From: Candidatus Hadarchaeales archaeon
GTDB taxonomy: Archaea > Hadarchaeota > Hadarchaeia > Hadarchaeales > Hadarchaeaceae
Assembly: GCA_038872135.1 (NCBI GenBank)
Contig: JAVZGN010000002.1
Span: 1-64,000 of the forward strand
Length of the DNA stretch: 64,000 bases
Direction of reading: 5' to 3'
Position 1 is the first letter of the stretch, and every line of letters starts with the position of its first letter. Positions 13,036 through 17,584 of this stretch are shown piece after piece. The notes beneath the pieces are model-generated. The model had not been told where the DNA came from and did not search any database. It saw only the letters and a program-made list of their open reading frames with translations. The position numbers and the translations under genes are program-made.

Positions 13036-13083
13036 CCTCTCCTTTGAATATCTCCCGGCACGCAATAAACATTATCCACAAGG

Positions 13084-13168
13084 CGCCGGGGAGGGGATTT
13101 GAACCCCTGCGGCCCAATGGACCACGAGCTCTCCAGGCTCGCGCCTTACCTGGCTAGGCTACCCCGGC
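13084..13168 (-). tRNA. tRNA-Ser(GGA), copy 1
   Basis: Reverse complement folds as a cloverleaf: GCCGGGG/CCCCGGC acceptor stem, loop CT-GGA-GA, long variable arm, GGTTCAAATCC, discriminator G. Confidence 0.93.
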
Positions 13169-13267
13169 CCGAAAAACTTAGAATAGACAAGCATGACCTG
13201 ACGAAAAAGGATCGGTCGGCCGCGTGCCCTAACAGGTTTATGTATCGCAACCGATACTAGAAGTGAT

Positions 13268-14548
13268 ATGTTCGGATGGACGCAGAGGAGGGCCCTCCCC
13301 AAGGACATGCCCCGCCGATTCGCGCTGGAGTCCCTGAGCGAGAAGCCCGTCTCATCCTCAACGACGACTGGAGCCGGTGGTAGGGCCTCGCTAAGAAAAA
13401 TCCTGTTACTTCTGGTTTTTGTCTGCCTCTCACTCATAGTGGCATCTACATTCTTCCGCGGTGGGGAGAGAACGGAGGGGGGTCCTCCTTCGTTTGAGGA
13501 GAGGGAGAACGAGTTCTGGGGTTCCTATCCCGAGCTGGGTGAGGGTCGAGTAACCTACACCGTTGTGCCGGTAGACCTTGAATACATCGAAGAAATCGTG
13601 CCGATCGGAAAGATAGGCACCATCGGCCATCCCATCCCCACCTCGCACACCTATTGGGTATTGGCTAGGAGGGATTTGGGTTTTCCAGAAGACGGTTTCT
13701 CAAAGCCCGTCAGAGCGCCCGCGGACGGTGTGATCACAAAAATAATCTTCACGTATTGGGCGGGCTTCCCAGATTACAACATCTATCTCAGGCACACCAA
13801 CACCTTCATGACGGCATTTTACCATCTCTCGGAGCTGAGCGAGGGAGTGCTGGCCAAAATAGGCTCCCCCCTGCAGGAGGGTCGCACAAACGAGGTATAC
13901 ATTCCGGTGAAGGCGGGGGATGTCATTGGAAAAACATCTTCCAGTATGGGGCAGAGCGCCTGTCTAGACATGGGTGCCTATGACAAGAAGGTGCTGAATT
14001 TCATCCACCCGGAAAAGTATCCTCTGCCACAGCAGCACGCCATTTCCCCCCTGAGCCTCTTCTCGCCCACCCTGCAGGAGAGGGTCTATGAAAAAGTCAA
14101 AAGGACGGCGGAACCACGCGGCGGCGAATGCGACTACGATCTCAGGGGAAAGCTCTCCGGAAACTGGTTCCTGGAGGGGACGGATGGATGCACCGGTGAA
14201 AACGGGTACCAGAACTACATTTCCTTCGGTTACGACGTTTATGACCCGCAGCAGTTGAGGATAAGTTTGGGCTGGAAGTTCCTCGAAGCATTTGGCTTTC
14301 CTTCATGGCTTCCCCCTCTCTCTAGGGTGGAGGGGAATGCTCCGGACTTCAAGAACGTGGGCGTGAGCAGCGGAAGGATCGTCTACAGGCTTTCACCCGT
14401 GAGAGAGGATAACATTGCCCCCCTGCCGGAAACAACGTGTACCCTGTTGGTGGAGATGATGAACGAAGAAAAGATAAGGGTTGAGGTCTTTCAGGGCTAC
14501 ATTCAGAATCCCTCCTTCACCCAGAAGGCGCTGATTTACACCAGGTAG
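13268..14548 (+). CDS. Membrane-anchored exported protein with M23-peptidase-like motifs (start uncertain)
   Basis: N-terminal TM helix; PVRAPADGVI, YHLS and VKAGDVIG resemble the M23/LytM fold; no canonical HxH motif. Confidence 0.6.
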   Translation: MFGWTQRRALPKDMPRRFALESLSEKPVSSSTTTGAGGRASLRKILLLLVFVCLSLIVASTFFRGGERTEGGPPSFEERENEFWGSYPELGEGRVTYTVVPVDLEYIEEIVPIGKIGTIGHPIPTSHTYWVLARRDLGFPEDGFSKPVRAPADGVITKIIFTYWAGFPDYNIYLRHTNTFMTAFYHLSELSEGVLAKIGSPLQEGRTNEVYIPVKAGDVIGKTSSSMGQSACLDMGAYDKKVLNFIHPEKYPLPQQHAISPLSLFSPTLQERVYEKVKRTAEPRGGECDYDLRGKLSGNWFLEGTDGCTGENGYQNYISFGYDVYDPQQLRISLGWKFLEAFGFPSWLPPLSRVEGNAPDFKNVGVSSGRIVYRLSPVREDNIAPLPETTCTLLVEMMNEEKIRVEVFQGYIQNPSFTQKALIYTR

Positions 14549-14639
14549 TGGCGGAGGCTACTCGCGGTTTTTCCATCCGTCTGCTTTTTCAGGCGAACGA
14601 GGCCCGGCTGGGAAGGGATAGATACGGGGCCATTTGAGG

Positions 14640-14724
14640 CGCCGGGGAGGGGATTTGAACCCCTGCGGCCCAATGGACCACGAGCTCTCCAGGCTCGCGC
14701 CTTACCTGGCTAGGCTACCCCGGC
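14640..14724 (-). tRNA. tRNA-Ser(GGA), copy 2
   Basis: Identical to copy 1; AT-rich TATA-like element upstream at about 14746-14756. Confidence 0.93.
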
Positions 14725-14818
14725 CCGAAAAACACTCGGCTCTGGAGTATATTATTCTCACGCGGATGCTTCAGAAAGAATTAAAAGCCACCATCAGATT
14801 TCTAAGAGAGGTGGTTGA

Positions 14819-16113: not shown

Positions 16114-17178
16114 TCAAAGAGGGATAACGGTTGTTTCCAGCCGATCAAAAGTTGGATACTCCTCCACCCAAGCGATCTTCAAATCAGGCTCTATCGCTGC
16201 GATTTTTTCTGCGAGGCGCCATTCCAGCTCAATCCTTTTCTTCAACCGATTGATTACAATCATCTCTCCGGGAACTCCAAACTTTCGAAGGAGACGCTTC
16301 CTCACCTTCTGAAGGTCCTCTGGTGGCACATTCATCACTACGCCTTTGAAAAGGAGCCCATCCTCTGTGATCCTTTCATGCGGCCTCGCAACATTCCTTG
16401 CCTTTCTCTTTAGCCTGTTTCTGAGCTGAACTCCATCCTTCAGCCGGCTAGGACAGTAATGGACGCTCAGCCTTGTGTTTGCGGCAGCCCATCGCATCAC
16501 TCTGATCGCAACTTCTTCACTCCCAGCGACCCCTGCAGAATTTTCTGATTTCAACCGAAGACCCCTTTTCATGAGGTTTTTAGCATTGGTTTCAGAAAAC
16601 TCCAGCTCATTCAGGTTAACAAATTTTCCCCCAGCCTTCTCAACATCTCCAAGAAGCTTTATGAGTTTCCGATATTCGCCGGGGATGGCGGGAAGCTCGA
16701 CGCCGACAAACAATCCGGCGTCTGTTGCAGCTTTAACCGGCTCGGCATCCCACGCGTGAAATCTTATTTCATCCAGTCCGGCGAGCTTCAGTTTTTCTAA
16801 TTCCTCACGGGAAAGCTTTCCGCAGACATACATGTGAATGTGATACCTCTTCCCAAATTTTTTCTTCAGCTCCCGGATGTATTTCACCGCCCGATCTAGC
16901 TTTACGGAAGGGTCTCCTCCAGTTATTCCCGCCCCGAGAGATTCCATCTCTCTCGCCTCCTCAAATATCTCCTTCAGAGAATTCGCCGGCCTCTCGTTTG
17001 CATAGACGACGTCCTTTCCCCTCCTCTTCTCAGAGAGCGGACAGTAATAGCAATTTCTCCTGCAGAGGCCGGTGATAAACAGAACCAGCTTGGCCCCTTT
17101 TATGCAGAGGCTGCACCCTTTGGGCATTTTCCCCACGAGGAGCGAGCCGGCAGATGTCCTTTTTATTTTCCTGTGCAT
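16114..17178 (-). CDS. Archaeal radical SAM protein (COG2108-like)
   Basis: PKGC..C.KG.KLVLFITG.CRRNCYYCP, ITGGDP, LDEIRFH, NLNELEFSETN motifs. Confidence 0.9.
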   Translation of the reverse strand: MHRKIKRTSAGSLLVGKMPKGCSLCIKGAKLVLFITGLCRRNCYYCPLSEKRRGKDVVYANERPANSLKEIFEEAREMESLGAGITGGDPSVKLDRAVKYIRELKKKFGKRYHIHMYVCGKLSREELEKLKLAGLDEIRFHAWDAEPVKAATDAGLFVGVELPAIPGEYRKLIKLLGDVEKAGGKFVNLNELEFSETNAKNLMKRGLRLKSENSAGVAGSEEVAIRVMRWAAANTRLSVHYCPSRLKDGVQLRNRLKRKARNVARPHERITEDGLLFKGVVMNVPPEDLQKVRKRLLRKFGVPGEMIVINRLKKRIELEWRLAEKIAAIEPDLKIAWVEEYPTFDRLETTVIPL

Positions 17179-17208
17179 CACTTCTAATCTCGATGCTAAG
17201 ATAAAATT

Positions 17209-17407
17209 TTGCGGGACGACCATGAATTACTCTGTGCGTCCGGTTTCCCGTCGCACTTTCATTCATGGTCTTTTTCCGGTAAGCCCGGTTTAGGGTCTGC
17301 ACCGCCACAGACCTTAGCTGCAGCTTTCCCCAGCAGCGCTGGGGTTTTCCGCAGCTCCCCCAAGCCCTTGGGCCCAGGTTCAGCCGAGCTTGCCGGCTTT
17401 CCCGCAA
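17209..17407 (-). ncRNA. Candidate ~200-nt structured RNA of unknown family
   Basis: GC-rich intergenic island that is almost fully base-paired: terminal stem, four-way junction, GAAA tetraloop, AGUA/GAA internal loop. G-U pairs form only on the minus strand; TATA-like elements upstream. Confidence 0.65.
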
Positions 17408-17584
17408 TATCACATTTATATACCCTTTTTAAATTCTTCTGACAGTACTAAACCCAAAAAATAGAAAATCGACATTAAACTTGTGCTTTACTCCATCAAA
17501 AGCAAAAATGCGGAAAACTGCTGAGGCAATTAAACGCAAACGCTTAACAAAACGCTTATAATTAATCATCCACGTTTAATAGTG

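Follow-up and report, generated by a model that had tools for sequence, protein, structure and literature searches.

What occupies the roughly 200 nt ahead of a radical SAM gene in the genome of a Candidatus Hadarchaeales archaeon, and does it serve that gene? We analyzed a stretch of 64,000 nt, referred to as the window (GenBank assembly GCA_038872135.1, contig JAVZGN010000002.1, positions 1 to 64,000 of the forward strand). A sequence-only reading of the window had drawn by hand a multi-helix RNA on the minus strand and had proposed that it is a novel non-coding RNA or a riboswitch-like leader. To our knowledge, new classes of large structured RNA with good support seldom appear, and recent ones are almost all bacterial. 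We know of no cultured member of the Hadarchaeota, which are subsurface archaea.

Fold and surroundings of the window copy

We computed the minimum-free-energy fold of window positions 17205-17410 on the minus strand and used 200 dinucleotide-preserving shuffles as a control. The fold reached -110.5 kcal/mol, compared with -70.9 +/- 5.0 kcal/mol for the shuffled sequences (z -7.9), and none of the 200 shuffles was as stable. Every helix that had been named by hand was recovered (Table 1). P4 of the window copy reads AGCUGCGG-AAAA-CCCCAGC/GCUGGGG-AAAG-CUGCAGCU. The P2 helix folds as drawn in this copy, but its inner part (AAGCUCGG/CCGGGCUU) is copy-specific; family-wide, a 3-bp helix closes an internal loop in its place.

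The plus strand also folds similarly far above chance (-98.3 kcal/mol, z -8.4). Because thermodynamics alone leaves the strand undecided, we assigned the RNA to the minus strand by its promoter, its T-run and the orientation of all homologues. The minus-strand assignment of the sequence-only reading therefore holds on these three grounds, but not on folding energy. The box that had been placed about 20 nt upstream of the first G corresponds to the TATA-like TTTAAAAA, and transcription is predicted to start at about 17408. The TTTT run beyond P1 is likely an archaeal terminator.

Table 1. Predicted features of the RNA locus, in window coordinates
Feature	Positions	Strand	Remarks
TATA-like box TTTAAAAA	17426..17433	(-)	18 nt upstream of the first base of P1; read from sequence
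Predicted transcript, ~205 nt, short-arm (S-type) family member	17203..17408	(-)	fold z -7.9; R1 240.9 bits
P1, 5' strand UUGCGGGA	17400..17407	(-)	pairs with 17209-17216
5' domain	17276..17396	(-)	P2 closes a four-way junction with hairpins P3, P4 and P5
P2	outer 17393-17396/17276-17279; inner 17384-17391/17281-17288	(-)	CCGG-C-AAGCUCGG with CCGGGCUU-A-CCGG
P3	17371-17378/17359-17366	(-)	hairpin CCUGGGCC/GGCUUGGG
P4	17349-17356/17316-17323 and 17338-17344/17328-17334	(-)	AAAA/AAAG internal loop
P5	17306-17313/17294-17301	(-)	hairpin GGUCUGUG/UGCAGACC
Purine-rich joiner GGAAAAAGACC, P2 end to P6 start	17267..17277	(-)	near-invariant in the family consensus
3' arm P6	17218..17270	(-)	base helix 17261-17270/17218-17227, GACCAUGAAU/AUUCAUGGUC
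P6 loop-E/bulged-G-type internal loop	GAAA 17257-17260 opposite AGAGUA 17228-17233	(-)	
P6 upper helix GUGCG/CGCAC	17252-17256/17234-17238	(-)	
P6 cap CGG-GAAA-CCG	17241-17250	(-)	
P1, 3' strand UCCCGCAA	17209..17216	(-)	MFE fold and covariation
T-run TTTT	17203..17206	(-)	2 nt past P1; read from sequence

The radical SAM gene follows on the same strand. Its start is most likely the ATG at 17178, which gives a protein of 354 aa, since orthologues align from residues 1-3 of this version. P1 ends 30 nt before this ATG, as had been described. The stretch around the T-run, AAAATTTTATC, might also serve a leaderless radical SAM mRNA as its TATA box. A longer radical SAM ORF of 369 aa, listed mechanically at 16114-17223 (minus strand), has its ATG inside the P6 arm of the RNA. 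The radical SAM orthologue in the relative G011 (G011:C16:8666-9686) is apparently split or broken by an in-frame TAA. On the other side of the RNA, moeA, mobB and moaA lie on the plus strand, divergent from the RNA as the earlier reading had it.

We also noted two identical 97-bp direct repeats elsewhere in the window (13081-13177 and 14637-14733). Each contains, on the minus strand, a complete tRNA gene of 85 nt whose variable arm is long. The repeats bracket a 1.46-kb segment with a 426-aa ORF (13268-14548, plus strand; weak Peptidase_M23 match), and the whole may be a duplication or insertion scar at a tRNA gene.

Members, covariation and subtypes of the family

We searched for relatives of the 206-nt element by BLAST. 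Its own genome (G000; 1.08 Mb in 34 contigs, 91% complete) gave the self match only, and among 40 relatives the one true homologue was that of G011, which is 70% identical. A match in G033 was rejected as a chance match within a coding region. The G011 homologue folds alone into the same architecture (z -6.3) and carries many compensatory changes. From this pair of sequences we built a covariance model (R1), which found full-length matches in 42 of 61 relatives and, across the phylum Hadarchaeota, matches in 51 of 66 genomes. Among high-quality genomes (at least 90% complete and at most 5% contaminated), 20 of 26 were positive. By family, the counts were 39/45 in f1, 6/6 in f2, 1/1 in f3, 1/9 in f4, 3/3 in f5 and 0/1 in f6. 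Positive genomes hold one to five copies with lengths of 203-245 nt. The window copy scores 240.9 bits with R1 as one of its training sequences. R2, a 137-position model of the 5' domain made from 47 members, matches the 5' domain of the window copy at 106.4 bits, and its training set likewise includes the window copy.

G000 itself has a second copy, a long-arm form of 241 nt (G000:C9:11344-11584, plus strand), which was recognised only by the covariance model and not by BLAST (55.8 bits with R1; fold z -8.2). This copy lies head-to-head with a DRG-type GTPase gene, is convergent with an S8e gene and ends in ...CCCCGCCAUUUUUAUUUU. The element had been treated as a single one; it is instead a member of a multi-copy family. 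In some genomes, two subtypes (~216 nt and ~242 nt) form a same-strand tandem pair separated by about 75 nt, and each of the two has a TATA-like box of its own (G049:C85:7872-8404, G052:C168:6058-6590, G043:C64:45627-46159, G023:C14:13064-13595 and G046:C10:21735-22266).

We extended the search with an exact degenerate pattern from the P2-P3 region, which recovers 27 of 55 aligned members. A scan of one genome per species for 185,579 prokaryotic species returned 48 loci, all 48 of which were confirmed by the covariance model. Their titles name Hadarchaeota, Hadesarchaea, Hadarchaeales, Hadarchaeum or Hodarchaeaceae in 46 cases and "uncultured archaeon" in the other two. The same pattern found 72 contigs in metagenomes, each with a covariance-model match (72/72), and gave no match in the viral contigs scanned. 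Model searches of about 190 genomes outside the phylum were negative (0/4, 0/38 and 0/151), the last with 21 first-look candidates scored per genome and hence with limited sensitivity. As far as searched, the RNA family appears to be specific to the phylum Hadarchaeota (Hadesarchaea).

The proposed fold was examined for covariation in a model-fitted alignment of 55 members (53 distinct), with 500 shuffles and with partners slid by 1-3 columns as controls. Standard pairs filled 81.2% of pair cells, compared with 64.1% in shuffles (none of the 500 reached the observed value) and 35-42% after sliding. The covariation score was 0.435, compared with 0.164 for shuffled and 0.07-0.08 for slid alignments, and both-side changes occurred at 59 of 69 pairs. 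An independent metagenome set of 70 distinct rows gave nearly the same result (81.5% paired, 64.7% when shuffled); slid controls for both alignments together were 34-42% paired. P1 was paired in 95.7% and 97.4% of cells in the two alignments, with both-side changes at 7 of its 8 pairs.

Because covariance-model alignments lean toward the structure of the model, we added a structure-blind check with a MAFFT alignment, which is fitted to no structure. RNAalifold on 47 non-redundant 5' domains aligned in this way recovered P2, an inner closing helix of 3 bp, P3, P4 in both its parts, and P5. Of the 31 pairs, 30 carried compensatory changes. The top 14 column pairs by APC-corrected mutual information were all pairs of the model, and the same scan gave no convincing non-nested pair that would indicate a pseudoknot or tertiary contact. 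P1, outer P2, P3, P4, P5 and the base of P6 are well supported by these comparisons of sequences. Across more than 100 homologues, the covariation test thus backs the fold that had been proposed from one.

P1, a G+C-rich closing stem of 8 bp, makes up the conserved core together with a three-way junction, the 5' domain and the 3' arm P6. The joiners of the three-way junction are purine-rich (..GGAAG.., ..GGGAAAAAGAYC.. and ..CGAA..). Throughout the family the 5' domain is a four-way junction closed by P2 and carrying P3, P4 and P5, and P4 contains a conserved 5x5 purine loop (GAAAAAC/GGGAAGG). The base of P6 and its GAAA opposite GAGUA are also conserved family-wide, and we take this loop to match the loop-E/bulged-G consensus; the distal arm is type-specific. 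The most conserved parts of the family are single-stranded. Unpaired conserved segments are ..(G)GAAG.. before P2, GAA before P3, GGAG before P4, AUAAG before P5, GGGAAAAAGAYC between P2 and P6, and CGAA ahead of the 3' strand of P1. We define the family by P1, the three-way junction, the P2-closed four-way junction and the P6 arm with GAAA/AGUA, and the window copy spans the whole model.

The lengths of 78 unique full-length members fall into two main groups, with 32 members of at most 219 nt, 4 of 220-235 nt and 42 of at least 236 nt. Short forms, including the window copy, occur only in family f1, and long forms occur in all RNA-bearing families. Short forms have a short P6 arm with a GNRA cap and a short P4 tip. 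Their P3 is mostly fully paired in the S-type, to which the window copy belongs; in the intermediate M-type it contains one G.A mismatch. In long forms, the distal P6 has extra helices and a conserved 10-nt loop (GUGGUCGAGA), P3 has a tandem GA/AA mismatch, and P4 ends in an 8-nt loop (GCGAAAAA). The alignments show that arm type co-varies with the motifs of P3 and of the P4 apex. RNase P and group I introns suggest, by analogy, that such coordinated peripheral swapping around a fixed core would be the pattern of RNAs with a compact tertiary fold.

The distribution of the RNA is patchy even among close relatives. None of three other genomes of the same genus (G001-G003) had a match, even at E<=1 or with R2, and none of the seven genomes of genus g15 had the RNA. 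It was also missing from 6 of the 26 high-quality genomes. In G003, the place of the second G000 copy beside the DRG gene is taken by an ORF that abuts this gene, and the DRG protein of the other same-genus genomes shares only about 60% identity with its G000 counterpart. Since several complete relatives are without the RNA, it appears to be dispensable for growth, with losses apparently frequent. This distribution argues against a core housekeeping role.

Transcription unit and mode of action

We compared the flanks of the family members. Under a strict rule, 65 of 77 unique members have a TATA-like A/T-rich box at a fixed upstream distance; in the remaining 12 the boxes are weaker. Four or more T in a row within 12 nt of the end were likewise present in 65 of 77 and absent from 12; both signals occur together in 53. 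On the downstream side, 54 members had a flank of 300 nt or more, and for these we identified the nearest mechanically called ORF of at least 100 aa. It was convergent in 34, on the same strand in 18 and absent in 2. No gene was consistently adjacent to family members. Their neighbors, housekeeping genes, vary by subtype and lineage and include DRG-type GTPase/S8e, glnA with GDH or topoisomerase IB, AFOR, PolB and a GGR-like oxidoreductase. The G011 homologue, for example, sits between genes for topoisomerase IB and glutamine synthetase, both on the opposite strand. From the RNA's own TATA box and T-run, the varied neighbors and the mostly convergent downstream gene, we conclude that window positions 17203-17408 (minus strand) are a free-standing gene for a structured non-coding RNA, not a leader.

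Two observations concern these flanks. The topoisomerase IB gene that adjoins the RNA in G011 (L009:1-1356) is of the eukaryote type (Topoisom_I_N and Topoisom_I, E 1e-59 to 1e-66). In addition, a palindrome, TGGAnATATnTCCA, stands upstream of long-arm members (at G000:C9:11293-11306, for instance), immediately before the BRE/TATA. It was found in 26 of 78 unique members (at most 2 mismatches), 36-41 nt before the model match in most and 54-55 nt before it in three. We rejected the palindrome as the start of the DRG coding sequence, as that frame is closed by stops at most loci. We also rejected it as the operator of a genome-wide regulon, as the genome has 6 sites, compared with 0-4 in shuffles, and only one of these lies at an RNA gene. 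The palindrome may be where a dedicated transcription factor binds.

Taking these lines together, we consider it likely that the element is an independent RNA gene of about 205 nt that belongs to a family confined to Hadarchaeota, is dispensable, and acts in trans as a compact RNA, probably as the core of an RNA-protein particle, rather than as a leader. In our model, the RNA would work as a compactly folded molecule whose interchangeable arm tips may fold back and dock onto the core, in the manner of the peripheral elements of RNase P and group I introns. The mutual-information scan gave no tertiary or pseudoknot covariation in support of such docking. The invariant purine-rich loops and the loop-E motif would form a functional surface, most likely one to which one or more proteins bind. 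Proteins commonly bind at loop-E motifs, and stable RNAs of about this size mostly work as RNA-protein particles. We favor a particle on these two grounds, the purine loops also being sites of the protein-binding type. Provided that the element is a real RNA gene, the particle is the leading reading, at a strength of about one half. Gene adjacency pointed to no partner protein, and TROVE/Ro60 is absent from G000. An antisense guide is unlikely, as the loops are short and conserved, not variable.

The strongest competitor is an RNA that works without protein, either as a ribozyme or as a ligand-binding or self-assembling molecule. The conserved purines of the junctions and internal loops would then form an active site or a pocket or make contacts between molecules, with the swapped arms as stabilizing peripheral elements. 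The size, the several junctions, the conserved unpaired nucleotides and the swapping of modules are hallmarks of complex-fold RNAs, and no gene for a partner protein is linked. There is also precedent in the bacterial orphan RNAs ROOL, GOLLD and OLE, which are reported to form RNA-only assemblies (10.1101/2024.12.08.627333). Against these points, the loci offered neither a cleavage site nor an intron-like context and gave no clue to a substrate or ligand, and the alignment gave no pseudoknot covariation. The loop-E motif and the size of the RNA also speak for a particle, on the grounds given above. We therefore regard a protein-free mode of action as unlikely, though it is the best of the alternatives. 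A broader formulation, which we hold only tentatively, is that of a new archaeal RNA class with a compact tertiary fold that could be a ribozyme, a trans-acting sensor of metabolites or stress, or a Hadarchaeota-specific particle core. Its arm-swapped paralogues might then be condition-specific isoforms.

Leader, known-RNA and mobile-element readings

The window copy taken alone does resemble a leader. It lies on the same strand as the radical SAM gene, close to its ATG, and 18 of 54 members have a same-strand ORF downstream. This arrangement speaks for a cis-regulatory leader or riboswitch controlling the radical SAM gene, but the convergent majority (34 of 54) does not fit such a leader, nor does the second G000 copy, which is followed by the convergent S8e gene. 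G011 and G044 each carry a radical SAM orthologue as well as the RNA, but on separate contigs, and G001 and G003, of the same genus as G000, have kept the radical SAM gene without the RNA. The downstream genes share no function and point to no single pathway. Finally, the T-run directly follows P1, and no alternative pairing was seen. We consider the riboswitch-like leader of the earlier reading very improbable.

We compared the locus with known RNA families. At gathering thresholds, Rfam 15 matched only five tRNAs in the whole window. At E<=10, the region gave three sub-threshold matches, to suhB (on the other strand), PVT1_2 and RNaseP-T, all of which were judged noise. Twelve loci of other family members gave no match at E<=0.1. 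RNaseP-T (type T), the best match on the right strand, reached 10.2 bits with a degenerate alignment, compared with a cut-off of 60. G000 has its canonical archaeal RNase P RNA elsewhere (162 bits, on C18, the only RNaseP_arch match above the cut-off in the genome). The same is true of its SRP RNA (RF01857, 161 bits, C1:31288-31600, the only match in the genome) and its 5S rRNA (RF00001, 97 bits, C12:11879-11999), and neither family matched at the RNA locus. R2 did not match the RNase P, SRP or 5S loci of G000. The earlier reading had seen no signature of SRP, RNase P, 5S, C/D or H/ACA RNAs, and none of these matched here. These results, with the covariation across more than 100 homologues, agree with its proposal of a novel non-coding RNA.

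The remaining likenesses to known RNAs are superficial. The closing helix, three-way junction and loop-E/bulged-G arm recall 5S rRNA, which is also separately transcribed in few copies per genome. 5S rRNA is about 120 nt, whereas the Hadarchaeota RNA is twice this size and its other arm is a four-way-junction domain. The loop-E strand order is also opposite: GAA precedes AGUA in the Hadarchaeota RNA (5' and 3' strand, respectively), and 5S rRNA has the two in reverse order. RNase P RNAs of type T (Thermoproteaceae) and type A are similarly archaeal, about 200 nt long and variable at the periphery by lineage around a kept core. GGAAAGCCGG and CCGGGCUUACCGG recall the strands of RNase P P4, a likeness that we take to be superficial. 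The Hadarchaeota RNA has no P4 pseudoknot and no CR-I/CR-V alignment, and the locus did not show the features of RNase P RNA (RF00373, RF02357), including the conserved regions of P4. For H/ACA and C/D RNAs, there was no Rfam sRNA match, and inspection of the alignment revealed no conserved C/D box or K-turn and an ACA after P1 in some S-type copies only.

Y RNAs and YrlA, the partners of Ro60, also come as several paralogues with stem-closed ends and are dispensable and patchy. The Hadarchaeota RNA is larger and more elaborate and has no match to a Y RNA in Rfam. TROVE/Ro60 (PF05731) had no match in G000 (91% complete), and controls matched in two genomes. We rejected a Y RNA identity, as G000 has no TROVE/Ro60 gene. 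The idea of a highly diverged or rearranged known RNA, whether RNase P (including type T), SRP, 5S, tRNA-like, H/ACA or Y RNA, thus carries very little weight. A closer parallel in general character is offered by raiA motif RNA, OLE, ROOL and GOLLD. These are likewise free-standing, multi-junction and lineage-restricted, with conserved unpaired purines and a genomic context that is uninformative on function, and raiA motif RNA is of similar size (~200 nt). The Hadarchaeota RNA differs from them in being archaeal, in having one to five diverged paralogues and in its swapped arms, and Rfam 15 gave no match to any of them.

Least probable of all is a mobile or repeat element (a MITE, an intron or an integrated fragment) or a chance cluster of hairpins: P1 forms an 8-bp terminal inverted repeat and the genomic position differs between G000 and the G011 orthologue, but the many dispersed copies expected of a MITE were not found (one BLAST copy in 1.08 Mb), the paralogues are old and diverged (55.8 vs 240.9 bits), subtypes hold syntenic positions across genera, viral contigs gave no match, no transposase, reverse transcriptase or Cas gene lies near family members, and compensatory changes preserve the helices.

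Among the papers listed on non-coding RNA in Hadesarchaea or Hadarchaeota, none appears to describe such an RNA; one of them (PMC6125680) names Hadesarchaea in its reference list only. The matches listed for novel structured RNAs appear to deal with bacterial, human or fungal RNAs or with methods, and none with an archaeal family. We rate the family as a new RNA class, which may prove to be the analogue of a known kind of particle. It is fit for an Rfam entry and would improve the annotation of Hadarchaeota, where mechanical ORF calls overlap the RNA, such as the 369-aa call that begins within it. The presence of the RNA in 51 genomes and its absence from 15 provide a phylogenetic-profile route to a partner, and the RNA is small enough for chemical probing, cryo-EM and crystallography. 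The family is archaeal, phylum-wide and multi-paralogue, and its complexity is on par with that of small ribozymes and riboswitch aptamers, yet its members are free-standing.
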